Part shown: one piece after another, positions 603 to 44,003 of the stretch | Layout of the letters: each line of letters begins with the position of its first letter | Position numbering within the stretch: the first letter of the stretch is position 1 | Virus record (IMG/VR): IMGVR_UViG_3300015370_000022 | Span: 1-46,879 of that record | Direction: 5' to 3' (one strand) | Origin: a virus | Lineage: Duplodnaviria; Caudoviricetes | Length of the DNA: 46,879 nt | Notes under the pieces: generated by a model | Told to the model about the DNA's origin: nothing | The model's database searches: none | The model's input: only the letters and a program-made list of their open reading frames with translations | Position numbers and translations under genes: made by a program

Positions 603-797
603 TTGAACAAGCAAGACCAGATAGGGTTTAATGTATGTGTTGATGCGACAAGGCACATGGAGAAGCACATGGCTGAAGAGGCTTACGAGAATTGTGCTCG
701 TCATGGGAAATGTTATGAGCTTTGTTTTAAGAAACATCAATGTGTAATTCCCATAGTTATCACGTATTACTGGACTAAATTGGCGATGAGGAATTGA
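603..797 (+). CDS. hypothetical Cys/His-rich protein
   Basis: Fills the gap between coupled genes; stop overlaps the methylase start. Confidence 0.5.
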   Translation: MNKQDQIGFNVCVDATRHMEKHMAEEAYENCARHGKCYELCFKKHQCVIPIVITYYWTKLAMRN

Positions 798-1237
798 TGA
801 AACCATACTATCAAGATAATCACATCAGGATATTTTGTAAAGACTGCCGTTCAATGGAGGAGTTGGGGGACGAAAGCGTGCAGATGTGCGTTACTAGTCC
901 CCCTTACTGGGGACTTCGCAAGTATTCTGGTGAGCAGGAATTGATATGGGGTGGAGACTGTCCGCATGAATGGGGTAGTTTGATACCCAATCCTATGAGC
1001 AAATCAGGTAAGCACGGTCCCGCTAGTATCTTAACAAAGACGGCAGATGAGCAACATGCAGTTAGAAAGGAAAGCAATCAAGGTAGCTATTGTCAACTAT
1101 GTTCTGCGTGGCGTGGAAGTTATGGATTAGAGCCACAACCAGATTGCGGGAGACCATTTGTGAAACTCCGAAGTGATTTAACTGAGAAAGAATTGGATTA
1201 TGCGAAGGGGGAATTAGAGCGATGCGGGTTGCTTTAA
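794..1237 (+). CDS. DNA methyltransferase (N4-C/N6-A, beta class), N-terminal fragment
   Basis: KPYYQD start, DCR, catalytic TSPPYWGLR motif, then GLEP; stops before the rest of the domain. Confidence 0.9.
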   Translation: MMKPYYQDNHIRIFCKDCRSMEELGDESVQMCVTSPPYWGLRKYSGEQELIWGGDCPHEWGSLIPNPMSKSGKHGPASILTKTADEQHAVRKESNQGSYCQLCSAWRGSYGLEPQPDCGRPFVKLRSDLTEKELDYAKGELERCGLL

Positions 1238-1765
1238 CTTTGGGCGTGGGTGATTACGCTTTGTCTTATTGTGGCAAGGGAAACATAGAGTCTGCCCATT
1301 CGGAATATCATATCGTAGGTCAGGGCGTTCAGCGTAAGGGATTATATGATGAGCTTGAAGTAGAACATTGTGTCCGTTCCCGTTCCTATTGCCACAATCT
1401 TGGCAGGTATAATTATCCCTTTCAAGCACTCCATTCACGAAGGCTCGGTATTCAGGGCTTTGAAAATCCTTCTGCCTTGCGGTTGATAAACCTCCCTTCC
1501 AATTCGGATGTAACTCACCTTTGCCGTGAGCTAGATTTGCTTTGCCTGCTTCAACAAACTTGGCAATCACTTCGGGAGTTGGGCGTCTGCCTGTCGGTTT
1601 ACCTGTTAAGGATGCAGAAATCTTGGCTCGCTTCTCTGGGGAACAAGGGATACCAGTTGATGTTGGCTTCCCCTTTCGGCTGGCTGAAATCTTTGCCCTT
1701 ACTTCGGGTCGCCAAGCAGGATTATCAGTCTTATTTCTTAAAGCTAAATCAGGTCGTTTTCTCAT
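1214..1765 (-). CDS. HNH homing endonuclease with NUMOD3-like repeats, antisense insertion in the methylase
   Basis: Repeats EVRAKISASRKGK and EKRAKISASLTGK, HPNWKGG, RDNYTCQDC...AHHI...NGQTLCFPCH. Confidence 0.92.
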   Translation of the reverse strand: MRKRPDLALRNKTDNPAWRPEVRAKISASRKGKPTSTGIPCSPEKRAKISASLTGKPTGRRPTPEVIAKFVEAGKANLAHGKGELHPNWKGGLSTARQKDFQSPEYRAFVNGVLERDNYTCQDCGNRNGNGHNVLLQAHHIIPYAERPDLRYDIPNGQTLCFPCHNKTKRNHPRPKLKQPASL

Positions 1766-1806
1766 ACCTTATTATACCACAAACGGGGGTAGGTTGTAAA
1801 CCTTAA
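1222..1806 (+). CDS. shadow/bridge ORF antisense to the HNH, linking the two methylase halves
   Basis: 194 stop-free codons; ATG lies within the end of 794..1237 after GAAGGGGG; stop overlaps the next start (TAATG). No recognisable protein family. Confidence 0.4.
   Translation: MRVALTLGVGDYALSYCGKGNIESAHSEYHIVGQGVQRKGLYDELEVEHCVRSRSYCHNLGRYNYPFQALHSRRLGIQGFENPSALRLINLPSNSDVTHLCRELDLLCLLQQTWQSLRELGVCLSVYLLRMQKSWLASLGNKGYQLMLASPFGWLKSLPLLRVAKQDYQSYFLKLNQVVFSYLIIPQTGVGCKP
1771..1800 (-). promoter_or_regulatory. sigma70-type promoter for leaderless HNH mRNA
   Basis: TTTACA-18nt-TATAAT with TG extension; ATG 5 nt downstream of the -10 box. Confidence 0.7.
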
Positions 1807-3920
1807 TGAATATAAGACTAGAAAAATCACGAGTACCAGCACACCTAACGAAATACTTTGAGACGGATACTTGCTCGTCCTGTTATGTGTGCCATACCAT
1901 AGAGATATTAAGGGAGATACGCCGGGTTTTACGCAAGGATGGATGCGTTTTTTTGAACATCGGAGACTCTTATGTGTCTGGCAAGTCTAGGTATTCAAGC
2001 AAGCCTCACTCTATAGCAGGTGGCAAGGATAGGGGTGATAACCACAGCCAGAAGCCAGACCAATATTACCATAAGTATCTAAAGCCCAAAGACCTCTGCC
2101 TCATACCCTTTAGAGTAGCCATAGCAGCCCAAGAAGATGGTTGGTGGGTGAGGTCAGTAATTATATGGAGCAAGCCCAATCCTATGCCTGAGTCGGTTCA
2201 CGGCTCGCATTTTATCAGGCATTGTGTTACAATAGAAGAGTATGAGAAGTTGTCAGGTATGCGGTCAACTAAAGGTAGCAACAAAGACGGGTCCGCCGAC
2301 TTGCCCAGAATGTCGCCGAGCCAAGTATCTGATTGTGAAGAGGCGTTATCGGAACAGTCTCAAAGGACAAGAGACCGAGAAGGCTTACGAACAGAGACCC
2401 GAAGTCAAAGAGAACCGCCGTCAAGCCAGCCGTTCACGGCAAGCCAAACAGAGCAAGGGAAGGCACAAACCAACAAAAGAAGAACGGAAGCAACAGAAGA
2501 AAGAAGCCAATCAACGCTACTGCAAGACAGTGAAGGGCAAATACAGGAAGCAACGAGACTATGCGAGGCGGAAACAAGCAATAGTAGTAGACCAACCAGT
2601 AACAGCAGAGGACTGGCTAGAGATACTGAAAGCTCACAAGAACCGCTGTCATTATTGCCACAAGAGGAAAGTGCTAACGATAGACCATATAATACCAATC
2701 AGCAAGGGGGGCAAACATATCAAGATGAACATAGTGCCAGCCTGTCGGAGTTGCAACGCCAAGAAGAAGGACAATCTGGTGATGCTCTTATAGAGTGCCC
2801 CGGCTGTCCGAAATGCAAACGATATAATGGCTATATTCGCATAAAAGGTTCAGGCAGACCTACCGAGTCTCACGAATACATCCTTATGCTCACCAAATCA
2901 GATGACTACTTTTTTGACACGGATGCGGTGAGAAGGGAATATACCGAACCGTTAAATCGTTGGGGTGGTCCCACATTTAGGGATTCAAGCCATAAGTATA
3001 TTGAAATGGGCGGACACGATGGTGAGCAGAAATACGGGGCAACAAGTATGTTCCGCAAGGGGCGTCCAGTTAGACCAAATGAAGGTGGGGCTAATATCAG
3101 GTCAGTATGGGAGTTCCCCGAAGAGGTTATTGGTGAGGCTCAAGAAGTAGAACCTAAAGAGTTCCGTTATGAGGGACAAGCCACAAAGGATTATAAATCT
3201 GCTGGTGCTCAAGACCCATCCGAGACAAAGAGAAGGATATTGAGAGGGCTTAAAACAAAGGGACAGCAAGAAATAGGCAACCAAGAACAACATCACGGGC
3301 AGGATATATTCCCTCAAAGTGGTAGCCGTAATCTTAGGTCTGTTTGGCACTTTCCGACCCAACCCTTTCCGCAAGCCCATTTTGCAGTATTCCCTGAGAA
3401 GCTACCTGAGTTATGTATTAAGGCAGCCACGCCAGAAGTAGGGTGCTGTAGTAAGTGTGGGGCACCGTGGGAGAGGATAGTTGAGAAGATACCCCAGAAT
3501 GTTCGTAGCCATAAACTAGCAAAGGGTAAAGTCAAAGATGCCGTTGATGGGAATAATCCTGATATGGCGGTGGGCGGTGGCTTCTCAAGAACGGGAGTTC
3601 AGTTTGAGTGGCAGGTTAATACTTTGGGTTGGAAACCTCAATGTAAATGTGGTAAATATACTTGCGTTAATTGTCAAAGTGTGGTATTATATCCTTTTCC
3701 TGATAAAAAAACTTGCCCGAACTGTGGCTCGCTAGACTTTAATTTTGAGCCTGCTGATAAAGCCCCATCAATAGTCTTAGACCCCTTCGCTGGAGCAGGC
3801 ACAACTTTATGGGTAGCTAAGAAGTTAAATCGTAAAGCAATAGGATTTGAGATTTCAGAAGAGTATTGTAACCTTGCCATAGAGAGATGCTCACAACAAG
3901 CTATGGGATTAAGTTTATGA
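1806..3920 (+). CDS. DNA methyltransferase, C-terminal part, with large in-frame insertions
   Basis: REIRRVLRKDG, NIGDSY, KPKDL, WSKPNPMPES, RPTESHEY, RSVW, HFAVFPEKL, VLDPFAGAGTT, GFEISEEY. Confidence 0.92.
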   Translation: MNIRLEKSRVPAHLTKYFETDTCSSCYVCHTIEILREIRRVLRKDGCVFLNIGDSYVSGKSRYSSKPHSIAGGKDRGDNHSQKPDQYYHKYLKPKDLCLIPFRVAIAAQEDGWWVRSVIIWSKPNPMPESVHGSHFIRHCVTIEEYEKLSGMRSTKGSNKDGSADLPRMSPSQVSDCEEALSEQSQRTRDREGLRTETRSQREPPSSQPFTASQTEQGKAQTNKRRTEATEERSQSTLLQDSEGQIQEATRLCEAETSNSSRPTSNSRGLARDTESSQEPLSLLPQEESANDRPYNTNQQGGQTYQDEHSASLSELQRQEEGQSGDALIECPGCPKCKRYNGYIRIKGSGRPTESHEYILMLTKSDDYFFDTDAVRREYTEPLNRWGGPTFRDSSHKYIEMGGHDGEQKYGATSMFRKGRPVRPNEGGANIRSVWEFPEEVIGEAQEVEPKEFRYEGQATKDYKSAGAQDPSETKRRILRGLKTKGQQEIGNQEQHHGQDIFPQSGSRNLRSVWHFPTQPFPQAHFAVFPEKLPELCIKAATPEVGCCSKCGAPWERIVEKIPQNVRSHKLAKGKVKDAVDGNNPDMAVGGGFSRTGVQFEWQVNTLGWKPQCKCGKYTCVNCQSVVLYPFPDKKTCPNCGSLDFNFEPADKAPSIVLDPFAGAGTTLWVAKKLNRKAIGFEISEEYCNLAIERCSQQAMGLSL
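2225..2233 (+). promoter_or_regulatory. extended -10 promoter inside the methylase CDS, for the nested HNH
   Basis: TGtTACAAT 8 nt before the HNH ATG; the same tgtgttacaat string occurs in the promoter at 38365-38375. Confidence 0.55.
2242..2793 (+). CDS. HNH endonuclease nested in the +1 frame of the methylase
   Basis: CQVC/CPEC zinc motif, basic helix, HKNRCHYC...TIDHIIPISKGG...NIVPACRSCNAKK. Confidence 0.92.
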   Translation: MRSCQVCGQLKVATKTGPPTCPECRRAKYLIVKRRYRNSLKGQETEKAYEQRPEVKENRRQASRSRQAKQSKGRHKPTKEERKQQKKEANQRYCKTVKGKYRKQRDYARRKQAIVVDQPVTAEDWLEILKAHKNRCHYCHKRKVLTIDHIIPISKGGKHIKMNIVPACRSCNAKKKDNLVMLL

Positions 3921-3983
3921 AACCATTTTTAATTGCACTGGGTATAGGTGGTATGATATATTTAGTTAGGTCTGGGTGATTGA

Positions 3984-4217
3984 ATGAACGATGAAGCAAG
4001 TGATTTTCGGGAGAAGTGTCCCATACTGGTAATGCCAAATGCGGGGAAGGAGAGAGTGCTTGAGTGTATCAACTGTCCTGTAAGAACGTGCATTGATGAT
4101 ATTAGGTTGACGAATAAACCAATTCTCCCTACTTTCCTTAAAGAAGTTAATGCGACCATAGCTGAACTAGAGGATATTAAGGATTATATTAAAGAGAAGA
4201 TGAAACAGGAGGATTGA
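3984..4217 (+). CDS. hypothetical protein (CINCPVRTC)
   Basis: 77 aa ORF in a coupled run of genes. Confidence 0.6.
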   Translation: MNDEASDFREKCPILVMPNAGKERVLECINCPVRTCIDDIRLTNKPILPTFLKEVNATIAELEDIKDYIKEKMKQED

Positions 4218-4390
4218 TGGAACCTGAAATACAACCCAATGACTTAGAGGAGAGGCTGAAAACAACGAGAAACAGGTGTGATATAGCACTCCTTTTAATT
4301 GAGCATAATCCTGAGCTATTGCCCACTATATTGGAGGATATGTTCTATGGGGTGCAAGAGATACTACGATTATATTGTATTAAGGGTTAA
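4217..4390 (+). CDS. hypothetical protein (MEPEIQPND...YCIKG)
   Basis: GGAGG RBS and TGATG overlap; 57 aa, translated manually. Confidence 0.6.
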   Translation: MEPEIQPNDLEERLKTTRNRCDIALLLIEHNPELLPTILEDMFYGVQEILRLYCIKG

Positions 4391-4422
4391 GTATGTGCTA
4401 TTATTAGAGAAAGGAGGAAGGT

Positions 4423-4662
4423 ATGTTAAAAAATGTTTCAGCTGAGAAAGAAGTAAGGGTTTGTGATGAATGCGGGAGTGAAATTATTTCATTTTGGAAA
4501 TGCGGTTACTGTGAGAAGGAGTTGTGCCAGTTTTGCACAGCTTTTGTTACTTGCTTGAAAAAGGATATTGTAAGAGGGCATACACTCGTTTGGAAATATC
4601 GTAAAGCAATGTGCCAAGCTCATTTACCAATAGAACTCGATTGGAGCGACATTAAGGAATGA
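4423..4662 (+). CDS. zinc-finger protein
   Basis: AGGAGG RBS; CDEC, CGYC and CQFC motifs. Confidence 0.75.
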   Translation: MLKNVSAEKEVRVCDECGSEIISFWKCGYCEKELCQFCTAFVTCLKKDIVRGHTLVWKYRKAMCQAHLPIELDWSDIKE

Positions 4663-5657: not shown

Positions 5658-5668
5658 GAGGTAAAATA

Positions 5669-5815
5669 GTGGGTAACGATTTAAGAGATGTGCTAATTGA
5701 ACAGGGGCAGTATAGAGATGTTTGGTATATCAACAAAGATGGTACAGCAGAAGAAAGGCGTTGCTTAGTAGTTCCTGCCATAGCAGTTGAGCCACTGATA
5801 GAGGAGGTAGAATAA
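5669..5815 (+). CDS. hypothetical protein
   Basis: GGAGG RBS, GTG start, 48 aa ending AVEPLIEEVE. Confidence 0.55.
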   Translation: MGNDLRDVLIEQGQYRDVWYINKDGTAEERRCLVVPAIAVEPLIEEVE

Positions 5816-5994
5816 TGAATTCAAAGCGTTGGTTTCATAGTTGGACATTGTGGGCGATGGGGTTGACATTCATTGGGAGTATAATCTCAGGAATTACTGG
5901 CGAGGATTGGCTTGATGGTGAGATGCAATTAACGATACTCTCCATTGTTGGTATTATTTTGAGATTGAAAACTGGGCAAGGCTTGACGAAGTAA
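5815..5994 (+). CDS. holin-like small membrane protein
   Basis: MNSKRWFHSWTLW..., two TM-like segments, basic C-terminus; GAGGAGG RBS; missed by the ORF track (59 aa). Confidence 0.65.
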   Translation: MNSKRWFHSWTLWAMGLTFIGSIISGITGEDWLDGEMQLTILSIVGIILRLKTGQGLTK

Positions 5995-5996
5995 CT

Positions 5997-6236
5997 TTAC
6001 CACCACCCCTGAACTTTAGTTACTATAGCACTAATTATTATGGCGAAAAGTCCGCCTACCATTCCCTTTGAGTCTTTTCGCCATGCTGTGTTTTTGGTAA
6101 CATCCTTCTTGACATTATTAAGGCAGTCTTTAATGGTTTTAACATCTCCAGCCATCCCCTTATCCTCAGTGCCTGCCACGCCATAAATAGATTGATGCAC
6201 TTGCCTTATAAGTTTATCTCGCTCTTGTAGTTTCAT
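5997..6236 (-). CDS. coiled-coil protein with C-terminal TM helix (holin/XhlA-like)
   Basis: Last gene of the late operon; hydrophobic C-terminus. Confidence 0.55.
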   Translation of the reverse strand: MKLQERDKLIRQVHQSIYGVAGTEDKGMAGDVKTIKDCLNNVKKDVTKNTAWRKDSKGMVGGLFAIIISAIVTKVQGWW

Positions 6237-8521
6237 TAGCTTAATGTCACCTTTTGCAAGAGTAATCTAAATCGCCGTTCAACTTTTCCACTTATCTCAT
6301 CTTTAGTTAAATAGCTGAACGGCTTTGTGGGGAGAAAGCGAACATAGATTGTAGTGCCATCAATATCATAGAAAGTAACAGGCCACGTAGCGGTGTTCTT
6401 TGCCTCTTCTAAAGTTGCTTTAATCACTCCAGCATCGGTATCCCTGTCGTGCCCCCCGTCATTCAGCGTTATGTTATCAGCACACCTTACCTCACAGTAG
6501 ATTATATCTCTTCTTGTGGGATACAGAATTCCTCTGCAATCATAGCCGTATAGTATCGGGGTAGTAGTAGCACTATTAGTTGTAGCGGTAATCTTGAAGC
6601 GTATCATAGTGCTTACGGGGTTTGCTCCACTTACATCATCTACTGGGATATAATTCGTTGTAGTCGGTGAGGTCTTGAATGCCCCGATAGTTGTCCAGTT
6701 TGTGCTTCCTTTGAGTTGATATTCCACAGTGAAATAAATATTAGCTGTCGTGCCACTCATTGTGAGAGTCATCTTGATAAATGCTTTAGAGTCCCCCTTG
6801 AAGTTAGCGTGCATCCACGGGGTTACAAAGTATTGGCTGGAGTCGGTAGCAAAGGAACGGTTAGCGTCAGTGGCTATACTACCGTAACTTGTTGGTAATG
6901 GAATGTAATATAAACTATCACCAGCAAGGGTGGAAGCTATCCATAGTCTTTTCTGATAGACACTAGAAACGAACATTGTTTCTACGCCATCCAAAGTAAG
7001 TTCAGCGTGAGGATGCCAGACCCAAGAGGTCGTGCCGTTTATGGTTTCCCTGCGACCTGCCATTATTTCTATCTTTGTGCCGTTGCCCAAAGCAACAAGT
7101 AAATACCTCTCATCACCAGCTACTGCCTGAACATCACCAGCAAAGGCGGATAGGTTGGTGCAGTAATCAGACGGATTTAGCCAGGTAAAAGTTCCATCAA
7201 GATACTCTAATAGGGCTGCCTTATAGGGCATATAGAGACCACCCAGCCACTCAACGGTATTCTTACCACCAGTGGAATTAGTGAGATGCTTTGTAGCTTC
7301 AGTCAGTTTATCTACATTACCCGAACTATCTAAATAAAAGGGTCTATCCTCTTTCATAATATAGAGGGCGTTTTCTACATCTAAGACATTAGTTATATTA
7401 TTAAAGCTGGTATCTACTATGGTCTGAGCTGTCCAAGCCACAGCCCCACCATTTTGGGGGGTTGTCGTTGACCTGATAGTATTAACCGTATCCGAGCCAT
7501 ACATAGTATCCGCAGTTAAGTGAACCATCTTGAGGAATTTCATTGAGTTGTTGGCTAGAGTATTTTCAGTAAAGGCTTCGGCGGTAGTCATCTCCCAATA
7601 AGCATTTGAATAACCCAACTCAATATAAAGTTTGCTATCACTGAATACTTCAAGGTCGGTAATTGTAACAGGGAATGTTTTAACTAAATCAAAACCAGTG
7701 CCTCCAGCATTTAATTTGCCTAAATACAAACCAAAAGAAGCATAAAGCTTATCATTGAATTCAGCAATGGCTATTGTTGTTCCTACTGCTGGCGGGTCAA
7801 AGTAAAGATTTACTTCATTCAAATAAACAGTGTTTATTGCTCCAGTAGCTAAAATTCTTATTCTTACTTTACTAACTCCATAAGTAGCCCCTAAACTCTT
7901 TTCATACCATAGAGATCCTATATCAGTGCCTTGATAAACATCGTGCCACCCTCCGTTATAATAGGCATCTACATCAATTTGGTCGCCTAACTGTGCCCAG
8001 TAACGCACTGAACTAGTAGGTTGAGGAGTTATCGTTAATTCAATAAACTTAGACCAAGTGCTTACCCCTGGTGTGCTCGTAGCATAAGTAGCAGTATTGG
8101 TATCATAGGCATTGGTTCCACTTGTCCACGCAGCATCGGGGTCAACAAATCCAGTTGGACTTACCCAGGCAGCGGAAGGAGCAGTAGGTTTAGTTAAAGT
8201 TGTTGGCTTATAACTACATATCGCCATACCCCTATTACGCAAGTCCATATTATAGGACTCGTAATATCTTTCGGGGTCGCTTTCATCGTAAGTTTCTAAT
8301 CCAAACCCAGACCTCCAGGAGTCCTGACCAATCCTGAATTCCTTCTCTGGAATTAAAGCGTCATAACCAGCTTCTGTAGTTTGTTGTCGAGCTAGGTATT
8401 CATCGTCAAAAGTTTGGTAAATCGGGGTTTTATTCTTATCACAGGCAAGTATAAAACCTACTTTTGTAGTGCCATCCTGTTTCAAGATACCGAAGTCGTG
8501 TTTTGATTTTTGAAAACTCAT
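6236..8521 (-). CDS. tail structural protein (nozzle/stabilisation-type, beta-rich)
   Basis: 761 aa, beta-propeller-like composition, downstream of the adaptor in the virion operon. Confidence 0.65.
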   Translation of the reverse strand: MSFQKSKHDFGILKQDGTTKVGFILACDKNKTPIYQTFDDEYLARQQTTEAGYDALIPEKEFRIGQDSWRSGFGLETYDESDPERYYESYNMDLRNRGMAICSYKPTTLTKPTAPSAAWVSPTGFVDPDAAWTSGTNAYDTNTATYATSTPGVSTWSKFIELTITPQPTSSVRYWAQLGDQIDVDAYYNGGWHDVYQGTDIGSLWYEKSLGATYGVSKVRIRILATGAINTVYLNEVNLYFDPPAVGTTIAIAEFNDKLYASFGLYLGKLNAGGTGFDLVKTFPVTITDLEVFSDSKLYIELGYSNAYWEMTTAEAFTENTLANNSMKFLKMVHLTADTMYGSDTVNTIRSTTTPQNGGAVAWTAQTIVDTSFNNITNVLDVENALYIMKEDRPFYLDSSGNVDKLTEATKHLTNSTGGKNTVEWLGGLYMPYKAALLEYLDGTFTWLNPSDYCTNLSAFAGDVQAVAGDERYLLVALGNGTKIEIMAGRRETINGTTSWVWHPHAELTLDGVETMFVSSVYQKRLWIASTLAGDSLYYIPLPTSYGSIATDANRSFATDSSQYFVTPWMHANFKGDSKAFIKMTLTMSGTTANIYFTVEYQLKGSTNWTTIGAFKTSPTTTNYIPVDDVSGANPVSTMIRFKITATTNSATTTPILYGYDCRGILYPTRRDIIYCEVRCADNITLNDGGHDRDTDAGVIKATLEEAKNTATWPVTFYDIDGTTIYVRFLPTKPFSYLTKDEISGKVERRFRLLLQKVTLS

Positions 8522-15004: not shown

Positions 15005-15691
15005 TTAACTTCTTCCACCTTCAACGTAGATGTAATCAACATCCACTATCTTTGCAGCCGCCTCACCCTGTGCCTCTAATGCGATTATGGGTGTGCAAGC
15101 AACCGATGCAGTTATGGCATTGTCAACATGACCTTCATACTTTCCGTTAATGAAGAAGTCAGCATGCCCATCCGCACTTACCGCAACCCTTAGTGTCTGG
15201 TATGTTCCCGCTACAGGTGCTATAGTAGTATCAACCTCAGTAGCATCGTTATCTGCCTTAACACCAACGCAATACCATGTATCATTAGTGGAGGCGGTGT
15301 CATACATGAAGCCAACCGCATCAGTAGCCGTTGTGGTTAATGCAGCCGCCAACATCTCAATAGGCATCTCAACTATAGTGCTCGCTGCCAGAACATCAGT
15401 GAACCCCACAAAAAGGGTTCTAAGGGTAATAGCGGTAACATTCTTTAGCCGTGCTTCCATAATCATTCCACCATCGGAAGCCTTCCAGTTGAGTTGATAA
15501 GTCAGGGCAATCCTGTCACCATCTGTCTGGTCGTCAGTTGTTATCCTTAATACACCATTGACCGCAGCCGTTATAGCCGTAGACCCACCAGACCCACCAG
15601 TCTCTGCACCAGTTGAGTATTGGTCTGCAATCACATCACCTAAGAAGTCATCAAAAAGTTTTACTTTTCCAAATCCAGTATCTGTCGCCAT
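15005..15691 (-). CDS. capsid-associated/decoration protein (lectin-like beta sandwich)
   Basis: FDDFLG...FFING...VDVDYIYV; first structural gene after the capsid gene. Confidence 0.65.
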   Translation of the reverse strand: MATDTGFGKVKLFDDFLGDVIADQYSTGAETGGSGGSTAITAAVNGVLRITTDDQTDGDRIALTYQLNWKASDGGMIMEARLKNVTAITLRTLFVGFTDVLAASTIVEMPIEMLAAALTTTATDAVGFMYDTASTNDTWYCVGVKADNDATEVDTTIAPVAGTYQTLRVAVSADGHADFFINGKYEGHVDNAITASVACTPIIALEAQGEAAAKIVDVDYIYVEGGRS

Positions 15692-15727: not shown

Positions 15728-16273
15728 CTAATTCCTAGGAGCGTTCTTAACTTGTGGAGCTAGTTTTGAAAGTTCAGCCTCCAACTGCCGAATTCGTTTC
15801 TCGTAGGGTTCAAAGGCTTGTTTAAGATTATGGCATTTTCTAGGCTTTGCTTCCAAGTTCTCAAGGCGGTTATCGTCTCTGATACCATTGAGGTGATGAA
15901 CGAGCCACCCTTTTGGCAATTCGCCGTTAGCTTTTTCCCAAACAATGATATGCTCTGCTTGATAGCGATGTTTCTTGCCTTGTCTCGGATGTAAGATGTA
16001 AATATAGCCCTCGTTATGAGTTCGCCCACCTTTCCAGTTTGGGTTGTTCTCTCCCAGATTGGACTCCACTCTAGACTTGTTATCGCAGAGATGACATCGT
16101 GTTGACCTTCTAATGATTGACTTCCCACAATCAGCACATTTTGCTGGATGAAGCCTTTCATAACGCTGAAGTTTCTCCCTATCTTTGATAACTCGGCATA
16201 GTGAACACCACTTTGCATCAGACCGCTTTGCCTCAAACTCTCCGCCACACTCTTGGCACAATAAGGTTGACAT
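15728..16273 (-). CDS. HNH homing endonuclease
   Basis: CQEC/CADC, NPNWKGG, EHIIVWE, VHHLNGIRDDNRLENL; AGGAGG RBS. Confidence 0.93.
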   Translation of the reverse strand: MSTLLCQECGGEFEAKRSDAKWCSLCRVIKDREKLQRYERLHPAKCADCGKSIIRRSTRCHLCDNKSRVESNLGENNPNWKGGRTHNEGYIYILHPRQGKKHRYQAEHIIVWEKANGELPKGWLVHHLNGIRDDNRLENLEAKPRKCHNLKQAFEPYEKRIRQLEAELSKLAPQVKNAPRN

Positions 16274-16335
16274 ACTACACCTCCTATATAGTTAGTATAG
16301 CATATCGGTTTCGTTGTGTCAAGTATTTTAGCCAT
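15760..16335 (-). CDS. shadow ORF overlapping the HNH in another frame
   Basis: Own RBS (AGGAAGG) and ATG right after the capsid stop; 191 stop-free codons; no recognisable family. Confidence 0.35.
   Translation of the reverse strand: MAKILDTTKPICYTNYIGGVVCQPYCAKSVAESLRQSGLMQSGVHYAELSKIGRNFSVMKGFIQQNVLIVGSQSLEGQHDVISAITSLEWSPIWERTTQTGKVGELITRAIFTSYIRDKARNIAIKQSISLFGKKLTANCQKGGSFITSMVSETITALRTWKQSLENAIILNKPLNPTRNEFGSWRLNFQN
16294..16322 (-). promoter_or_regulatory. sigma70 promoter for the HNH gene
   Basis: TTGACA-17nt-TATACT with TG extension. Confidence 0.8.
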
Positions 16336-16362: not shown

Positions 16363-17235
16363 CTATGATGTGGGAGCTGTTGCATCACTAAAAATTTCAA
16401 CACCCCAAGTATCCAAGCGTTCGCCATAGGCATACTCATCATAAACGAATATGTCAGTGGCTCCGCCACCAATGTTTTCCTTTCTTACTGGTACCGCTCT
16501 TGGTGCTCTACCTTGAACCATAACAATCGCTTCCTGTGCAAAGACTCCACCTTTGGCTTCATTGCTACTTATACTAATGTTGCCATCAGGATAAAGCTGT
16601 GCACCAGCTATCATGCCTCTAAAACCTTCAGTAAAGACACGAGCTGTAAGCCCCTCGCCTATAGGGTAAGTCCCAACACCCGCTATGATTTCATCCTCAA
16701 TGTCTCTAATTTGATAAGGATGCAAAACACATCGGAAAGGCGGGTTTCCTGGCTCGGTAGCATTACCCTGTATGATTGCCATTCCAGCCGAGATATGTCC
16801 GCTAGTTAAGGTTGAACTGCCCGACCCAGGATGCGAGTTGCTAAAACCATCCAAAACAGTAATGCCATCTTCGTCTTTCTTGCGTTGAATTGCGTTCTGT
16901 GCAAGAGAACCAATTTTAGCATACGCATTTTTAGATATGCGTGCAGCTACCCTATCAGTAATGCGGGTCTGAATACCCACAACTGTAGGCGTAATAGAAA
17001 ACAGGGTATCAGTAATTTGTTGTGGGTTTTCCAATTCAGTAGTCTCAGTGATTGATTGAGCCGTGAGTTGAGCCATTGAAACTTCGTTCCAAGTAAGACC
17101 CATACCCTCACCCAACGTCTGCTTTTCTACTAATTGAGGCATAACCCCTTCATGCTCTCTAACAATCCTTGCATTAAAAATTATCGTTGGTAAACTATCA
17201 GCAAGGCTGAGAGTAGTTGTATTTCCACTTGCCAT
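16363..17235 (-). CDS. major capsid protein
   Basis: 290 aa after the scaffold; HK97-like patterns (AIQRKKDED, CVLHPYQIRDI). Confidence 0.85.
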   Translation of the reverse strand: MASGNTTTLSLADSLPTIIFNARIVREHEGVMPQLVEKQTLGEGMGLTWNEVSMAQLTAQSITETTELENPQQITDTLFSITPTVVGIQTRITDRVAARISKNAYAKIGSLAQNAIQRKKDEDGITVLDGFSNSHPGSGSSTLTSGHISAGMAIIQGNATEPGNPPFRCVLHPYQIRDIEDEIIAGVGTYPIGEGLTARVFTEGFRGMIAGAQLYPDGNISISSNEAKGGVFAQEAIVMVQGRAPRAVPVRKENIGGGATDIFVYDEYAYGERLDTWGVEIFSDATAPTS

Positions 17236-17236
17236 T

Positions 17237-17983
17237 TTATCCTCCTATTTGTAACTTATCTCTGATGCTCTTTGCTCTCTTTAGATTGTCAGGTGTCATC
17301 TCAAGTTCCCCACTGCCAATCTTGAGCACAAAGTCTTCATCACTTAATCCTCTTCCAGAGGGCATCCCAGTTTCAGTTTTAAGCAATCCGCTTTCCTCCA
17401 TCCATTTCCGCTTCTCTTCCTCAAGGCGTTTATTGAACTTTACGTCAGCATCTTCCTTAGTAGATTTTGAAGTAGATTCAGCCTTGCTAATCTTTTCCTC
17501 GGCTTTATCTATTCTCCCCAACATTAAGAGGTTTTCCACCTTCTCAAGTCCATCATCATCATCCTTGAAAACTTCCTTAGCACGAATATAAATAGCATCG
17601 GCTTTGCGGTTATATTCGTCTTGTTGTGCCTTCGCTTCAGTTCGCTTTCTCTTCTCTGCTTGCTCTTTTTCAATTTGGTCGTATTTGCCGAGTAAACTAC
17701 GCTTCTCCTCATCTGGCAAATCACCCAAACTTTCATTTCCCTGCATAGCAACTAAGATACGCAACCTTTCATCGAGGTCATCAAGTCGAGTATTAAGTTG
17801 GGATTGCTTTCTAATGTCTTCCTCTTTTTTAGTAATCGTTTGGTGTGCAGTTCTTAATCCCTTCTCGGTCTGTTCTAGTTTAACTTTTATATCCCCAAGC
17901 TCGGCTCGAACTACCTCCAATTCATTTTCTGGGGTAGAAATCTCCTCGATTGTAGTTTCCTTCCCCTCGGTTTCGTCTGACAT
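17237..17983 (-). CDS. capsid scaffolding protein
   Basis: Acidic coiled-coil directly upstream of the capsid gene; AAGGAGG RBS. Confidence 0.75.
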   Translation of the reverse strand: MSDETEGKETTIEEISTPENELEVVRAELGDIKVKLEQTEKGLRTAHQTITKKEEDIRKQSQLNTRLDDLDERLRILVAMQGNESLGDLPDEEKRSLLGKYDQIEKEQAEKRKRTEAKAQQDEYNRKADAIYIRAKEVFKDDDDGLEKVENLLMLGRIDKAEEKISKAESTSKSTKEDADVKFNKRLEEEKRKWMEESGLLKTETGMPSGRGLSDEDFVLKIGSGELEMTPDNLKRAKSIRDKLQIGG

Positions 17984-18107
17984 TATATCCTCCTTTTTTT
18001 TGTGGGAGCGTAGTCCTCTAAACGAAGAAACGGGGGTAACTTCGCATAGCCTGAACTACGCCCCCGTTTTCTTATAGCCCTATTTAATTTTTAATGTTCT
18101 ACTTCTT

Positions 18108-28584: not shown

Positions 28585-28989
28585 ATGATAACTAAAACTG
28601 ATTTAGCCTATATTGCTGGATTGTTAGATGGCGAAGGCACAATCTCTATTTCCAATCAATTTTATATGGCAGTTAGAATACGAAATACTGATAAAGAAGC
28701 AATGCATTGGCTTAAGGGTATATTTCCGCTGGCTCGCCTCTATACAATTATGCCCCGGCAACCAACCCACAAAACAAGTTATTCCCTTGAATTATCAGGC
28801 GACAATGCTTCTGACCTACTTAAACACTTATTACCCTTTTTGAGAATTAAAAAACGTCAAGCTCTTCTGGCAATCCATTTTATCAATGAACGCCATTTAA
28901 GAGCACCCAGACCTGGTCATAAATTACATCATTCAGTTATTGCCAAGCGGAAGCAATACTACATAGAGATGAAACAGTTAAATTCTTAA
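28585..28989 (+). CDS. free-standing single-motif LAGLIDADG endonuclease
   Basis: LAYIAGLLDGEGTI ... LLPFLRIKKRQA. Confidence 0.9.
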   Translation: MITKTDLAYIAGLLDGEGTISISNQFYMAVRIRNTDKEAMHWLKGIFPLARLYTIMPRQPTHKTSYSLELSGDNASDLLKHLLPFLRIKKRQALLAIHFINERHLRAPRPGHKLHHSVIAKRKQYYIEMKQLNS

Positions 28990-29358: not shown

Positions 29359-29507
29359 CAACTTGGCATAAGGAAATACCCAAAGCAATAGATGGTATTT
29401 GCGTAGATTGCAAAAAGTTTTATGAGTGCTTTATCCGAGAAGCTGCAGAGAATGAACGCAATAGTCATGTAGTAGAATGCGGGCAATTTGAGGAAAGCCG
29501 AAACTAG
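29355..29507 (+). CDS. small Cys-rich protein; its 3' end overlaps the hammerhead
   Basis: AAGGAGG RBS, ATGA overlap, CVDC...C...C, 50 aa. Confidence 0.6.
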   Translation: MTTWHKEIPKAIDGICVDCKKFYECFIREAAENERNSHVVECGQFEESRN

Positions 29508-29565
29508 CTCTTAACCGGGCTAGTCTGACCGAGTTGACATCTCGGCACTGACGAAGGCAAGTCAG
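29497..29565 (+). ncRNA. type II hammerhead ribozyme
   Basis: GCC-GAAA-[stem III ACTAGCTC/GGGCTAGT]-C(29525)-[stem I TG-CCGAG/CTCGG-CA]-CTGACGA-A-GGC; loop TGAC can pair with downstream GTCA. Confidence 0.85.
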
Positions 29566-29592
29566 ACAATCAAAGGAAAGGGGGCAAGGACG

Positions 29593-32853: not shown

Positions 32854-33268
32854 AGAGGGAGTTAGCCTCCCCATAGGGAGAGAAAATCAGGAGGTTATAT
32901 GCTAAGACTAATAACAGATAAAAAGAGGAAAGAGGAAAACCACAAGTTCTATGATGAGGGATTAAACAGGGGATATGCGTTAGGGCGTATGATGGACCGA
33001 GCAGAAGCCACTAACCGGGGATTTATTATAGGAAGCAAAGTAAATAAAGAGCTTGAGGATATTCTCAAGCAGGAGAAATTTTAAGGAGGTAAGGAGTAAT
33101 GGAAGTAATTAAGTGGGCGAGTGGTAAGGGTCTGAAACTAATCCTATCACGAAAAGAGGCAGAGGATTTACAAGAAGTGGTACGCCTTGCACTGGGGTCA
33201 TATGTCAGGGAAGCCGAAAGTGATTTCTTTGAAATAGAAATAGAGAGGGAGTTAGCCTCCCCATAGGG
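32854..33268 (+). repeat. 25 bp direct repeat AGAGGGAGTTAGCCTCCCCATAGGG (32854-32878, 33244-33268)
   Basis: Exact match; contains a GGGAG/CTCCC hairpin; brackets two small genes. Confidence 0.9.
32899..33084 (+). CDS. hypothetical protein
   Basis: AGGAGG RBS; YDEGLNRGYALG motif. Confidence 0.65.
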   Translation: MLRLITDKKRKEENHKFYDEGLNRGYALGRMMDRAEATNRGFIIGSKVNKELEDILKQEKF

Positions 33269-39729: not shown

Positions 39730-39739
39730 GGTATCTATT

Positions 39740-40654
39740 ATGGCTGAGAAAATATTGTTGCTGAATATTGATAGTAAGTTGACTAATATAGCTCTGAAGA
39801 AGATTGAGATGTGGCATACACAACGAGGCGATAAAGTTATTTGGGATATGCCTATGATGTTAGGAATGACTGATAGAGCCTATGCTTCTTGTATCTTTAC
39901 CAAGAATGCTAGTATTGTGGCGAATTACAAAGGACTCTACCCCGAACTTATCGCTGGTGGAACTGGCTATGATTTAACTATTAAATTGCCCTCTGAAATA
40001 GAAGCTATGAAACCCAAAATAAACTATGGCTTCACTACTAGGGGATGTATCAGAAACTGTGCGTTTTGCCTTGTCCCTCAAGCGGAGGGTAACATTCACA
40101 TCGTGGGAGATATTTATGACATCTGGGATGGTAAAAGCAAAACTCTTATATTACTTGATAATAACATCTTGGCATTACCTACCCACTTTGAGATGATATG
40201 TGAACAAGTGTGGTCAGAGGATTTAGTTGTGGACTTTAATCAAGGATTAGACATAAGATTGCTTACTCCAACAGTTTGTGAGTTATTGAAGTCAATAAAA
40301 ATTAAGGAACTGCGTTTTTCCTTTGATAGCCCAAAACTTGAACCCATCATCCGTAAGAAGGTATCTTTGCTCAATGATTACGATGTAGCAAATCGCTATT
40401 GGTTCTTTGTGCTAGTTGGTTTTGATACCACATTTGAAGAAGATTTACATAGATTGGATGTGTTGAGGGAATTAGGCTGTGTTGCGTATGTTATGAGACA
40501 TGAGAATACCCCAAAAGAAGAGAGATATATACGACTAGCTGAATGGGCTAATCAGATTTGGACTTTTTGCCAATGGGACTTTGAGGAACACTGCAGAAGA
40601 AATAAATTAAGAAGTAGAAAGTGGCATAGTATTGTAGGGTGCTATTATGGCTGA
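39740..40654 (+). CDS. radical SAM protein
   Basis: TTRGCIRNCAFC (CxxxCxxC), LLDNNILA, DFNQGLDIRL; start at MAEKILLL. Confidence 0.9.
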   Translation: MAEKILLLNIDSKLTNIALKKIEMWHTQRGDKVIWDMPMMLGMTDRAYASCIFTKNASIVANYKGLYPELIAGGTGYDLTIKLPSEIEAMKPKINYGFTTRGCIRNCAFCLVPQAEGNIHIVGDIYDIWDGKSKTLILLDNNILALPTHFEMICEQVWSEDLVVDFNQGLDIRLLTPTVCELLKSIKIKELRFSFDSPKLEPIIRKKVSLLNDYDVANRYWFFVLVGFDTTFEEDLHRLDVLRELGCVAYVMRHENTPKEERYIRLAEWANQIWTFCQWDFEEHCRRNKLRSRKWHSIVGCYYG

Positions 40655-40832
40655 GAAGGTTGTATCTTGTGATAGTTGTGTCCACTCTTTAGTTTGCCGA
40701 TTACTGGAAGGTGAAAGGGACGCTAGCTTTTCAGCCCAGAATAGAGGCGATATAATTAAGGAGGTCAATACACTAAAGATGGAGTTGGCTCAAGCCTGTA
40801 GATTTTACAAGATGGTGAAGATAGATGGCTGA
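40647..40832 (+). CDS. small Cys-rich protein
   Basis: CDSCVHSLVC...CRFY. Confidence 0.6.
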   Translation: MAEKVVSCDSCVHSLVCRLLEGERDASFSAQNRGDIIKEVNTLKMELAQACRFYKMVKIDG

Positions 40833-40993
40833 TAGAGAGGGGAAGATAACAGCGGTGGGGTTATATTGCCACAAGACAGGTTTAGCCTATGAGACTAAGG
40901 AGATACCAGAATGAAACCACTAATCTATATCCTATGTTTTATACTTATGCTCCCTGTTAAGGTTTTAAGATTGATTTGTGGTATGGAGGCGAG

Positions 40994-41257
40994 ATGACAG
41001 ACCTTAGAAAGTTAATAAACCAGTTCCCAGAGTTGGGGGATTGTTTCGCTGAGTGGGAAAATCGCATCAGCTTTCTTGAAAACTCATTACCTTATAGCCG
41101 ACCACCAGAACCTCAGCCAGCACAAGAGCCTGAAGTCTGGAAGCCTAGAGCTTGGGATAGACTACAACAGTTAGAGGCTAGAGTCCTCCATATTGAAAAG
41201 AAAAGTATGGAACAACGAGCCGAGAGAGCTAAGAGAAAACAAGTTAAACCTTTCTAA
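40994..41257 (+). CDS. hypothetical coiled-coil protein
   Basis: GGAGG RBS before MTDLRKL. Confidence 0.65.
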   Translation: MTDLRKLINQFPELGDCFAEWENRISFLENSLPYSRPPEPQPAQEPEVWKPRAWDRLQQLEARVLHIEKKSMEQRAERAKRKQVKPF

Positions 41258-41420
41258 TAGATATATATAAAAATATAATATATATACGCATATAGGAAAA
41301 TTGGAACTAGGCGTGAATTTATAAGAATCGCCAGTCGTGAGACTGAAATTTATAAGAATTTTTATAAGACAGTTATAAGAATTATAAGCCTATAAGAATT
41401 ATAAGAATTATAAGGAGAAT
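41258..41420. repeat. putative replication origin: AT-rich tract plus eight TATAAG iteron-like repeats
   Basis: TATAAG at 41320, 41351, 41363, 41374, 41383, 41391, 41400, 41409; TA-rich tract at 41258-41293. Confidence 0.65.
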
Positions 41421-42410
41421 ATGGAAGACAAGGGGCTTTATGCGAGAGCACATGGCAAGGTTATAGAGCTATTGCCTGTATTAAAGGGTAGGCACTTTGC
41501 TAGCAAGGATGTTTGGGATTTAATTGGGTTGGGTAATTTACCTGAACATGCACCTTACAAAGAGGCTATCGCAAAGGTTTTATATAATATATCTCAAGTA
41601 AATAAAGAGCCGTTGCTTAGGCAGGTAGGGAAGCAATACAGGATTATTGAGAAGGATATTCCTGAGATAGAGTGGTGGATACCGAGTGGTAAGAAGCCTT
41701 TGGAATTAAGGTGGCCTAGGGGGGTTGATGATATGACCTACTTTGGGTTTGAGGACTCCACAGAGATATATCCTAGAGATGCTCTGGTCTTAGCAGGGGA
41801 GGGGAATAAAGGGAAAACAACATTTGCCTTAAACTTTTTGGTGGAAAATATGGATAATTACCCATGCACTTATTTCTCCAGCGAATTTAGCGAATTGAAA
41901 TTCCGTAACAGGATAGAGAGATTTGACTGGGTGGATATAATGAAAAATGGCAGACCAAAGTTTGAATTGTTGCCACGCCAGCAATATTATGAGGATGTCA
42001 TTAGCGATAGGAAGGATAATATAAATATCATTGATTGGATAAGAATGGATGATGACCCTTGGAAGATAAGGGCAGTTATAGATAGCATAATGCAACCATT
42101 AGATAAGGGGATTTGCTTGATTGTTCTCCAGAAGCGGTCATATAAGAGTGTGGGTGAGGGTGGAGAGGGAAGTGTTGACCTTAGCAGTGCTTATTTTATA
42201 CTATCAAACCAGAAACTGAAGGTTGAGAAAGTAAAGGTGCCAAAGGCGTATGACCCGAATTATAAGACTTTTGGTTTTGAGATAATAAAACATGGTAGCA
42301 GATTTAATAATATCAGGGAGATAATAAAGTGCAAAAATTGTAGTGGGTCTGGCAATCATCGTGGTGCTGAATGTGAGGACTGTTTTGGGATTGGCTATAT
42401 TGATAAGTAA
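41421..42410 (+). CDS. RecA/DnaB-fold ATPase (replicative helicase-like) with C-terminal CxxCxGxG zinc finger
   Basis: GEGNKGKT Walker A, YFSSE, IIDW Walker B, VLQK; CKNCSGSG...CEDCFGIG. Confidence 0.8.
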   Translation: MEDKGLYARAHGKVIELLPVLKGRHFASKDVWDLIGLGNLPEHAPYKEAIAKVLYNISQVNKEPLLRQVGKQYRIIEKDIPEIEWWIPSGKKPLELRWPRGVDDMTYFGFEDSTEIYPRDALVLAGEGNKGKTTFALNFLVENMDNYPCTYFSSEFSELKFRNRIERFDWVDIMKNGRPKFELLPRQQYYEDVISDRKDNINIIDWIRMDDDPWKIRAVIDSIMQPLDKGICLIVLQKRSYKSVGEGGEGSVDLSSAYFILSNQKLKVEKVKVPKAYDPNYKTFGFEIIKHGSRFNNIREIIKCKNCSGSGNHRGAECEDCFGIGYIDK

Positions 42411-42422
42411 GGAGAAGGAACA

Positions 42423-42617
42423 ATGGATAAAGAAGCAATAAAAAGAGCTAGTGAGATAGCGGTTAAGGATATGCGGGAAAAGATGAAGGAGATGAGGGCT
42501 GTTAATCCTCAGCGTTTCAGTCAATTTGTAGCTTTGGGTAAGGCGACTTTCACGCCAAACAAACTCCATAACATTGATAAGCCAGTTAAGGGTAAGAAGG
42601 GGGGAAAGGATGCTTAA
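42423..42617 (+). CDS. hypothetical protein
   Basis: AAGGAG RBS; 64 aa. Confidence 0.6.
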   Translation: MDKEAIKRASEIAVKDMREKMKEMRAVNPQRFSQFVALGKATFTPNKLHNIDKPVKGKKGGKDA

Positions 42618-42948
42618 TACAATAAGAGATTTTATCCAACGAGGCAGGAAGGGGTATGCTTCCCGTGATTTATGGAGCTTTAGCAACTGGTTAAGCACAC
42701 TCATAGCTAGTGGCTTGCGAGAATTTAAGAAGAATTGTCGTACCTATCCTAGCGATGGCATATCGTGGGAAGAATGGATGACTACGCTTGACGAAATGAT
42801 TGAATGTTTTGAGGAACAAGCAAGGTCATTGAATAATATCGGAGGGGAAAACTTTATGGATAACTGGCGTAAAAGGCGGGAAGTTCAAAAGAAAAAGCTA
42901 CATCGGGGGCTAGAACTTTTAGGGAAGTATTGGTGGGATTTGAGGTAA
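42610..42948 (+). CDS. hypothetical phage protein
   Basis: GYASRDLWS...WEEWMTTLDEMI...GLELLGKYWWDL; start at MLNTIRD. Confidence 0.7.
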   Translation: MLNTIRDFIQRGRKGYASRDLWSFSNWLSTLIASGLREFKKNCRTYPSDGISWEEWMTTLDEMIECFEEQARSLNNIGGENFMDNWRKRREVQKKKLHRGLELLGKYWWDLR

Positions 42949-42961
42949 TTAAGGGGGTGAA

Positions 42962-43639
42962 ATGCTAGAGAAAGACCTAAAACTTGCGGTGGAGGAGTAT
43001 TTACAATATCAACAAAACTTAGGCTTAAAGAAGTTGATGTTGATTATTGAGCAAAGCTTCAAGCTCTTGGATACGCTTGGCTTTTGCTTGAAGGACAAGG
43101 CTATGTTTTTTATTTGGCAAGGCTATAAGGTTACTAGAACGGTTATCATCAGGTATGCCATTCAAATGGTGAATAACCCAACCCGTAGGCAATGGTTTAT
43201 TATTAACTTGCTCCCATATAAGAATATGCTCCCAAACATATTTGTGCTTGTCTGCTCTTGGATGGTCAGGGTTGTAAATTTTAATATAACCGCCCTTCTG
43301 GATTACCCTTCCCCCTTTCCATCTTCTGGGATGAAGGATAAGACTACACTGGAGACAATAAGTTTGGTAGGCAGAAGTAAGTTTGCCACAATTAACACAA
43401 TAATAGGGATGATTCGCCATCCATCGTTTATGTGCAGCATTTGCCCCGCCTTTCCAGCGTTTGTTTTGCTCGCCTCTAGAGTAAGAACGATGCTTTTTAC
43501 AACCTTGAGATTTAAGCAATATAGGTTTTCCGCATACGGGACAAGGTTTTTGTTTTTTGTGCTCCTTATAATACAAACTCCAATATTCTTTTATCTCCAT
43601 AGTAAAATTATATCATTAAGGAGGGAACTTGTCAACTAA
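42962..43639 (+). CDS. original VRR-NUC N-terminus fused to a shadow ORF antisense to the HNH
   Basis: First 21 aa match the N-terminus of 43629..44003; frame stays open across the HNH and stops within the VRR-NUC start region. Confidence 0.5.
   Translation: MLEKDLKLAVEEYLQYQQNLGLKKLMLIIEQSFKLLDTLGFCLKDKAMFFIWQGYKVTRTVIIRYAIQMVNNPTRRQWFIINLLPYKNMLPNIFVLVCSWMVRVVNFNITALLDYPSPFPSSGMKDKTTLETISLVGRSKFATINTIIGMIRHPSFMCSICPAFPAFVLLASRVRTMLFTTLRFKQYRFSAYGTRFLFFVLLIIQTPIFFYLHSKIISLRRELVN
43025..43600 (-). CDS. HNH homing endonuclease, antisense insertion
   Basis: CPVC/CVNC, WKGG twice, EHILIWE, IHHLNGIPDDNRSSNL. Confidence 0.92.
   Translation of the reverse strand: MEIKEYWSLYYKEHKKQKPCPVCGKPILLKSQGCKKHRSYSRGEQNKRWKGGANAAHKRWMANHPYYCVNCGKLTSAYQTYCLQCSLILHPRRWKGGRVIQKGGYIKIYNPDHPRADKHKYVWEHILIWEQVNNKPLPTGWVIHHLNGIPDDNRSSNLIALPNKKHSLVLQAKAKRIQELEALLNNQHQLL
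43607..43635 (-). promoter_or_regulatory. consensus sigma70 promoter for leaderless HNH mRNA
   Basis: TTGACA-17nt-TATAAT with ATG 6 nt downstream; overlaps the RBS and TTG of VRR-NUC on the other strand. Confidence 0.85.
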
Positions 43640-44003
43640 AATACCATTATCAGAAGCAGATATAAAAAGAGCAATCGAGGAGTTCCTAGCGTGGCAACAA
43701 AACTTGGGGAAACTATGGTTTACCAGATTAAATAGTGGCAAGGCATTTGTTAAGAAAGGCGACAGGTTCCACAAGATACAGCTATGTCCTGCGGGCACAG
43801 CAGATTTGTTAGTAATAACCAATAATGGTAGATATGATGCCCCTAATAAATTTTATGCAATCCCGATTTTCTTGGAACTCAAGAGTGATAAGGGGGAAAC
43901 TTCAAAGGCTCAAGATAAGTTCGCTGAGCTTGTGCAGAAACAAGGGGCAAGCTACTTTTTGGTGAAAAGTGTAGATGAAGTAAGGGAGATTATTGGAGGT
44001 TAA
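43629..44003 (+). CDS. VRR-NUC domain nuclease (resolvase-like)
   Basis: SEADI...GTADL...FLELKSDKG...Q...VKSVDEV PD-(D/E)xK pattern; AAGGAGG RBS with TTG start. Confidence 0.88.
   Translation: MSTKIPLSEADIKRAIEEFLAWQQNLGKLWFTRLNSGKAFVKKGDRFHKIQLCPAGTADLLVITNNGRYDAPNKFYAIPIFLELKSDKGETSKAQDKFAELVQKQGASYFLVKSVDEVREIIGG

Follow-up and report, generated by a model that had tools for sequence, protein, structure and literature searches.

The phage record IMGVR_UViG_3300015370_000022, a stretch of 46,879 nucleotides (nt) that was analysed at its full length and is called the window here, carries terminase, capsid, helicase-like and methylase genes (Pfam/PHROG) within its 46.9 kb, together with seven HNH endonuclease genes (H1-H7) and one LAGLIDADG gene. 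Four of the HNH genes, H1-H4, all with Pfam HNH or HNH_3 matches, are each overlapped by a second frame that is open in the direction of the host genes. Over H2 this is the methylase frame; over H1, H3 and H4 it is a separate open reading frame (ORF), referred to here as a filler. A preliminary description of this DNA had claimed four such stop-free frames, and the endonuclease ORFs and the frames across them are all present at their coordinates, as listed below (coordinates, strand, feature, basis; SD, Shine-Dalgarno sequence; aa, amino acids).

794..1237, +, N-half of a split beta-class DNA methyltransferase with a TSPPY motif (PHROG 67)
1214..1765, -, H1, NUMOD3-HNH endonuclease, backward (Pfam HNH, NUMOD3)
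1222..1806, +, filler ORF 1, 194 codons (sequence, nulls, homologues)
1771..1800, -, H1 promoter TTTACA-18-TATAAT with TG (11/12 matches)
1806..3920, +, C-half of the methyltransferase (Pfam N6_N4_Mtase)
2198..2861, +, in-frame insert of ~221 aa in the methylase C-half (empty-allele joint, eight homologues, composition)
2242..2793, +, H2, HNH in another frame within the insert (Pfam HNH, E 1.3e-11)
15728..16273, -, H3, zinc-finger HNH_3 endonuclease, co-oriented (Pfam HNH_3)
15760..16335, -, filler ORF 3, 191 codons, +1 frame (sequence, nulls, homologues)
16272..16306, -, predicted hairpin in which the -10 box region pairs with the H3 SD and AUG (-18.0 kcal/mol, z -4.3)
16322-16294, -, H3's own promoter TTGACA-17-TATACT (11-12/12 matches)
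42962..43639, +, filler ORF 4, 225 codons (restart identity, homologues)
43025..43600, -, H4, zinc-finger HNH_3 endonuclease, backward, codon-aligned (Pfam HNH_3)
43607..43635, -, H4 promoter TTGACA-17-TATAAT (12/12 matches)
43629..44003, +, VRR-NUC nuclease with a replacement N-terminus (SD AGGAGGG, TTG; Pfam VRR_NUC)

The overlapping frames were compared with two nulls of 3000 sequences each, in which the HNH gene was recoded by synonymous permutation or by genome codon usage, and all four exceeded them. The H1 frame has no stops, against 7.7 (permutation) and 9.8 (genome usage) expected, the H2 frame none against 9.0 and 19.1, and the H4 frame none against 10.0 under genome usage, the permutation null being uninformative for H4 because its frame is codon-aligned. 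The shuffled-control check named in the preliminary description was thus passed by these three, equally open frames arising in 0/3000 recodings, and less strongly by H3, the weakest of the four, which has one late stop against 2.9 under permutation (41/3000 without stops) and 8.6 under genome usage (0/3000). H4 has no TTA, CTA or TCA codons; TTA and CTA serve none of its 19 leucines, compared with 251 of 564 leucine codons in ordinary genes, and TTA is the commonest leucine codon of this genome. The three antisense frames of H4 contain 0, 14 and 15 stops, so the purge is confined to one frame. The four overlaps use four different frames. Among 30 other genes, none of 432 segments of 180 codons was open in any alternative frame, and in H5-H7 and the LAGLIDADG gene every alternative frame is closed by 3-27 stops.

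The surroundings of the four genes agree with the preliminary description only in part. It placed each HNH gene inside or at the start of another gene, which is not true for H3, an intergenic gene. The sigma70-type promoter that it assigned to each was found for H1, H3 and H4 (11-12/12 matches); H2 has only the extended -10 sequence TGTTACAAT, 8 nt before its ATG, which had not been described earlier. The frame ends at the host restart, as stated, for H1 and H4, where its stop overlaps the next start, but the H3 filler comes to its stop 32 nt ahead of that of the HNH gene, leaving 68 nt to the next start. The HNH genes said to split no operon and to have no long frame, H5-H7 (34393, 38398, 45305), indeed have none; however, H5 and H7 overlap neighbours in an operon. 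Moreover, H6 and H7 have promoters as well (10/12 matches). Therefore, neither the promoter nor the operon position is the discriminator, but whether the HNH gene is itself read from the host message. The observed overlaps represent three designs, one being H2, one H1 together with H4, and one H3.

At H1 the methylase, whose fold matches M.RsrI and M.BceJIV through the relative L083, is split after GLEPQPDC. The N-half ends in an added tail, CGRPFVKLRSDLTEKE..., with proportions of nonsynonymous (pN) and synonymous (pS) differences of 0.17 and 0.85 (12 loci), and the C-half, which contains the H2 passenger loop, begins with an added head, MNIRLEKSRVPAHLTKYF, followed by CxxCxxC (head pN 0.30, pS 0.93; 10 loci). 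The tail and head peptides are thus conserved as protein, which argues against splicing. Filler ORF 1 begins within the N-half, with an SD and an ATG 16 nt from its end, and the filler stop overlaps the C-half start (TAATG). The H1 ATG lies 5 nt after the -10 box, and its transcript would be leaderless.

Related loci, numbered with the prefix L, repeat this arrangement in different frames. The H1 site has 13 complete backward inserts among these loci, and each of them has a bridge on the host strand: six in frame A1 (window, L001, L084, L089, L093, L096), five in frame A0 (L010, L017, L085, L097, L099) and two (L091, L092) by two-ORF relays in which a 41-45-codon ORF in the third frame is directly followed by a long A1 ORF (A2+A1). 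Outside this count are L090, L094, L098 and L103, which lie at contig ends, the false hits L100-L102, L088, which is the window itself, and L027, a co-oriented HNH gene before a head-like start. The bridge in L097 exists although its HNH is unrelated, and in L084 (4097-4473) a backward insert that has lost the HNH core, with a zinc finger and a NUMOD3-like part remaining, still has a TAATG-coupled filler. When the window, L001 and L089 are compared, the HNH proteins are 79-82% identical with a pS of 0.63-0.71 (flanks 0.60-0.84), and the fillers are 43-47% identical. The synonymous sites of HNH are therefore saturated while the frame is kept open, and the filler product is not conserved.

H1 and H2 are optional elements, since alleles with and without the insert were found. 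The methylase of relatives is intact, intact with a small Cys loop (L052, L184, L186), split with a 28-nt gap and no insert (L082), joined through tail and head in one ORF (L083) or split by a backward insert, a list of states in which no temporal order is implied. An empty allele in a DNA contig (80% likeness, likely another organism) joins 1135 to 1893. A complex model of the two methylase halves scored 0.80, against 0.01 for the best control; the mark applied was reached by 116 of 157 solved pairs and 2 of 215 mismatched pairs. The runs share at least 82% of contacts, the partner predicted local distance difference test (pLDDT) value is at least 71, and tail and head lie in the interface. 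The source of this pass may be likeness to solved beta-class methylases. The split is likely tolerated because the added tail and head let the halves reassemble. Cultured phages gave no close H1 relative (all below 60% identity), and all seven loci inspected from a genome scan with the split head had intact methylases. A split intein is not indicated at H1: there is no Pfam Hint match, the tail and head measure ~30 and ~22 aa, and a terminal Asn is missing.

H4 solves the same situation with a replacement start. Filler ORF 4 begins MLEKDLKLAVEEYLQYQQNLG, which matches the starts of VRR-NUC homologues (P0033, for example, begins MLESDL), and it likely opens with what was once the start of the VRR-NUC gene, together with 21 codons of that gene. 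This beginning is 63% identical over 19 aa to the restart N-terminus, and the filler and the gene restarting at the new TTG overlap by 11 nt. The H4 ATG lies 6 nt after the -10 box. The second VRR-NUC N-terminus likely arrived with the H4 cassette, and L105 has the old-start-to-new-start arrangement in a different gene (compare L106). The filler is on average 36% identical among relatives. No empty-allele joint was seen in reads, the only such alleles being protein homologues with a single N-terminus, and viral-contig scans with the H4 protein or the VRR-NUC gene singly gave no matches.

H3 lies between the major capsid gene (16363-17235; Pfam Phage_capsid_4) and 15005-15691. Filler ORF 3 starts 27 nt after the capsid stop and runs over the H3 promoter, SD and gene. 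On the capsid message the predicted hairpin would hide the ribosome-binding site (RBS) of H3, and the transcript from H3's own promoter, which does not include the 5' arm, is predicted to fold with -4.4 instead of -18.0 kcal/mol. All seven members of the H3 family are located between the capsid gene and the next gene, the hairpin is predicted in 7/7 (z -2.2 to -4.3), and in six a long +1 filler begins close behind the capsid stop. No hairpin is predicted for H5-H7 (z 1.1, -1.5 and -1.5). The alignment-based fold is weak, with five pairs, one of which has a two-sided change. Among co-oriented genes, the hairpin occurs together with an open shifted frame in 6/7.

The open frame over H2 is that of the methylase, which carries there a disordered loop bounded by conserved His/Cys ends. 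The insert has the ends HGSHFxRHxV and ECPGCPKC around a middle rich in S, E, Q, R and T, and these ends may form a zinc clasp closing the loop. There are no stops in the methylase frame, and no intron or intein was detected in this insertion. A DNA contig contains the empty-allele joint 2197-2862. The insert is kept in frame in eight homologous methylases, with 37-71% identity over the region and a middle of varying length, and L085 has a short loop version without HNH. Other loops of the same methylase hold in-frame HNH inserts that are co-oriented (L096, P0010) or backward (L001, L036, L084). A viral-contig scan with the H2 protein alone gave no matches. Two further observations concern methylases: at ~3100-3350 (+) of the window an N[IL]RSVW motif is repeated around an extra stretch of ~80 aa missing in most homologues, possibly a further in-frame insert with a duplicated target, and at L048 (3707-5851) a cytosine methylase-like ORF has an out-of-frame HNH nested in a stop-free insert.

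The effect of orientation was evaluated with 125 HNH ORFs (loci L001-L183 and the window), of which a redundancy cut at 90% left 103. These were 36 backward and 53 co-oriented genes plus 14 unclassified ones of mixed or unknown context, which stood outside the 2x2 test. An opposite-strand frame, counted as open when this applied to 80% or more of the final 150 codons, was found in 24/36 backward but only 6/53 co-oriented genes (Fisher 1.3e-7). At a guanine-cytosine (GC) content of at most 55% the counts were 21/32 and 3/49, where recoding expects 2.0 and 5.0. With up to two ORFs allowed, 28/36 backward genes are crossable (5.8 expected), compared with 7/53 co-oriented ones (8.1 expected). The same holds within the HNH_3 family, fetched by profile with context ignored, in which 13/22 backward and 3/40 co-oriented genes are open. 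Among its 80 loci the backward copies are found at a wide range of host sites, mostly with a filler that reaches from the upstream stop to the downstream start. In 25/28 bridged loci, against 9.6 expected, the filler stop falls -20 to +15 nt from the next start; this count, which leaves out L010 (no downstream gene called) and nine loci bridged little or not at all, takes the closest start codon in each case and includes 4/28 distances set by hand, both of which count against its weight. The overall HNH pS of 0.63-0.89 is like that of the flanks.

As judged from these comparisons, the host-direction frames are evidently selected and the filler products are not conserved. Because the filler proteins are not conserved while HNH synonymous sites are saturated, it is likely that translation and not its product is selected; the fillers would be translated, and the act of translation would be what matters. 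We consider it quite probable that these are free-standing homing endonuclease cassettes which are harmless without splicing, by a purge of stops in the host-direction frame, so that ribosomes cross the insert and restart downstream. With the stops removed, ribosomes translating the host message would continue through the HNH insert, and those ending at the filler stop would restart on the next host gene, so that termination-reinitiation coupling is kept. Filler translation may also cover a pyrimidine-rich insert against Rho. This benefit is plausible since pyrimidines make up 54% of the host strand over backward inserts (40-45% in neighbours) and a rho gene is present in 5/5 Dehalococcoidia-labelled genomes; purine bias and Rho are treated in the accessible part of PMC13323073. 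Both avoided polarity and kept coupling are plausible benefits, and sequence alone does not separate them. One rule fits all four cases: the open frame appears where the HNH gene is unreadable from the host message, being backward (H1, H4), behind a predicted RBS-hiding hairpin (H3) or nested out of frame (H2). In H3, an unread HNH would leave ~550 nt of the capsid message bare, and the filler would cover this stretch. Harmlessness by stop purging, as originally suggested, is therefore supported with regard to the selection of host-direction frames, the absence of splicing signs and the coupling at the 3' end seen in homologues, but not as a single mechanism for all four genes, as the H2 frame is a host protein with a passenger loop and H3 is loosely coupled and has an RBS-hiding hairpin.

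Several results weigh against this explanation. The backward bridge is common, not obligatory: 12/36 backward genes fail the single-frame test and 8/36 the two-ORF test, T4 segD is backward with 9/26/12 stops and no bridge, and L104, the sister of H4 (97/89 support), is backward yet closed by 10 stops. Host-direction promoters do not clearly explain any of eight unbridged loci. Backward HNH_3 genes cluster on the tree (seven changes, compatible with a single origin), so the counts are not independent, and the pooled test is affected by the H1-site loci, for which the split tail served as the query. The strength of the downstream SD shows no difference between bridged and unbridged loci in a comparison without L010, and the H4 restart has a strong SD. 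As for H3, 68 nt separate the filler end from the next gene, L176 has the hairpin and a filler of only 66 codons, hairpins occur in 4/31 co-oriented genes without filler, and 5/6 cases of hairpin plus open frame belong to one clade. In addition, Dehalococcoidales as the host is a weak suggestion resting on 30 residues, over which the nearest intact methylase core in a genome scan, from a Dehalococcoidales bin, is 90% identical.

The fillers might alternatively encode real proteins, for example ones that inhibit the endonuclease of the same cassette. Each begins with a start codon, mostly preceded by an SD, their lengths are similar (~190-230 aa), and the H4 filler has one hydrophobic stretch. 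This is nevertheless decidedly improbable: the frame differs between loci at one site, the relays split the product, identity is 36-47% at saturated HNH synonymous sites, the three fillers (H1, H3, H4) have no Pfam or PHROG match, and a filler persists without the HNH core in L084. Programmed frameshifting or bypassing could instead produce a single protein fused from N-half, filler and C-half, like the in-frame H2. The same enzyme tolerates H2-type in-frame passengers, and T4 gene 60 bypassing is a precedent for ribosomes crossing. However, an X XXY YYZ slippery heptamer is absent at the four junctions tested, junction offsets differ among homologues, start codons are a recurring feature of each junction, the split in L082 consists of a 28-nt gap with no insert, and H4 has a second complete N-terminus. 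We regard fusion as improbable.

Unusual self-splicing introns, with incidental open frames, would agree with the fact that excision from after DC to before YVCH would give a product as long as the empty allele, and divergent introns may be missed by Rfam. Nonetheless, the H1-H4 ORFs lie outside any intron or intein (Rfam, Pfam): Rfam intron families were found neither in the window at E<=1 nor in 10 homologous loci at gathering score, and H1-H4 lack both a Pfam Hint match and intein ends. The tail and head show conservation at the protein level, HNH genes occupy nearly the whole insert, and stop purging and coupled junctions would be left without reason, all of which makes introns highly improbable. 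Codon bias inherited in a few HNH clades would agree with the HNH_3 tree clustering and with the frequent chance opening of frame A0 in GC-rich genes (null P up to 0.69). This explanation is already largely contradicted, and hence distinctly unlikely, as one frame is purged while the others are normal (0, 14 and 15 stops in H4), the commonest leucine codon, TTA, is avoided in H4, co-oriented members of the same clades are closed (L114, L016), and the frame stays open while third positions saturate, with stops falling at the next start.

The overprinted bridge has to be compared with several known systems. H2 is already published in kind: hidden out-of-frame HNH insertions in phage methylases were described as the ShiLan domain (Arsenault, Gosselin, Gogarten 2025, PMC11855218), in which an HNH in another frame lies within a stop-free in-frame methylase insertion without intron or intein signs, a leaderless start is proposed and the insert is predicted as a disordered loop. 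In contrast to that description, the H2 insert is bounded by conserved His/Cys ends and contains an extended -10, and it is by its architecture that H2 is likened to ShiLan gp65. Backward cassettes, separate-cistron fillers, split hosts and intergenic cases, as in H1, H3 and H4, do not appear in that paper, and the fillers of these three are separate ORFs in a frame other than that of the flanking host ORFs. T4-type phages offer known cases of gene splitting and of hairpin control. Free-standing genes such as mobE (Aeh1 nrdA), mobA (gene 60) and seg43(25) split genes without a splicing element, host halves may reassemble, and neighbours are coupled; in I-TevI, segB and mobE, as predicted for H3, an RBS-hiding hairpin is released by the gene's own promoter (PMC2988022, accessible part). 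These T4-type genes run in the host direction and form the translated link themselves, the lone backward one, segD, is unbridged, and filler frames across the endonuclease were not found described in the accessible part of that source.

Integron ORF-11 and short attC-site ORFs resemble the fillers in that translation, hardly the sequence, brings ribosomes to the next gene through termination-reinitiation, so that a relay ORF can work almost whatever its sequence; they differ in having 11-18 codons within recombination sites instead of ~200 overprinted codons, and no integron is present here (PMC8876359, accessible part). In inteins with antisense or out-of-frame endonucleases the host frame is also open across the endonuclease, but that frame is the splicing domain, for which H1-H4 have no Hint match (bioRxiv 10.1101/2025.01.02.630785, accessible part). 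As a separate observation, L007 (5156-7246) and L183 (~5702-6349) contain terminase-like ORFs with intein-like ends (…LVHNC) and a shifted-frame HNH, as in published non-canonical inteins. Filler ORFs bridging backward or silenced endonucleases were undescribed in the open-access literature searched, subscription journals and supplements being outside its scope. What is added here is the change of frame and the use of two-ORF relays at a single site, the series of split and fused alleles, the orientation control within a family together with its exceptions, and the hairpin-plus-filler design.

On balance, we are inclined to see here a third general route to neutrality beside introns and inteins, in which the endonuclease overprints a disposable ribosome bridge in any available host-direction frame, breaks are repaired by relay ORFs, and the hit gene receives a replacement start or reassembly peptides; a backward or silenced endonuclease could hence land anywhere in a coupled operon. 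If this is true, selection on translation itself, and not on protein, shapes overlapping frames of 200 codons, and such frames provide a natural readout of the cost of an untranslated stretch or of lost coupling in phage operons. It would also give a non-protein reason for long antisense ORFs, a standing puzzle of bacterial genomes, and explain how free-standing endonucleases invade operons without splicing. In annotation, care is required, as the filler may be called as a gene or the HNH missed.

Several minor features of the window were also noted. An additional small HNH-like ORF of 98 aa (44238-44534, +; motif match), absent from the earlier list, is co-oriented and has no filler. The LAGLIDADG gene (28585-28989, +), in which none of the alternative frames is open, is free-standing near the genome divergence point and has its own TG-TATAAT and SD. 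A weak hammerhead type II match (29496-29566, +; 30.9 bits, gathering 37, E 0.02) lies directly upstream of ORF 29593, and an identical hairpin-like sequence is present in two copies, at 32854-32872 and 33240-33264, in a region of short ORFs. Finally, a Glu/Lys-rich scaffold-like gene (17217-18077, +) has antisense ORFs of 124 and 157 aa in frame A2, with one stop in 248 codons, which are likely compositional.

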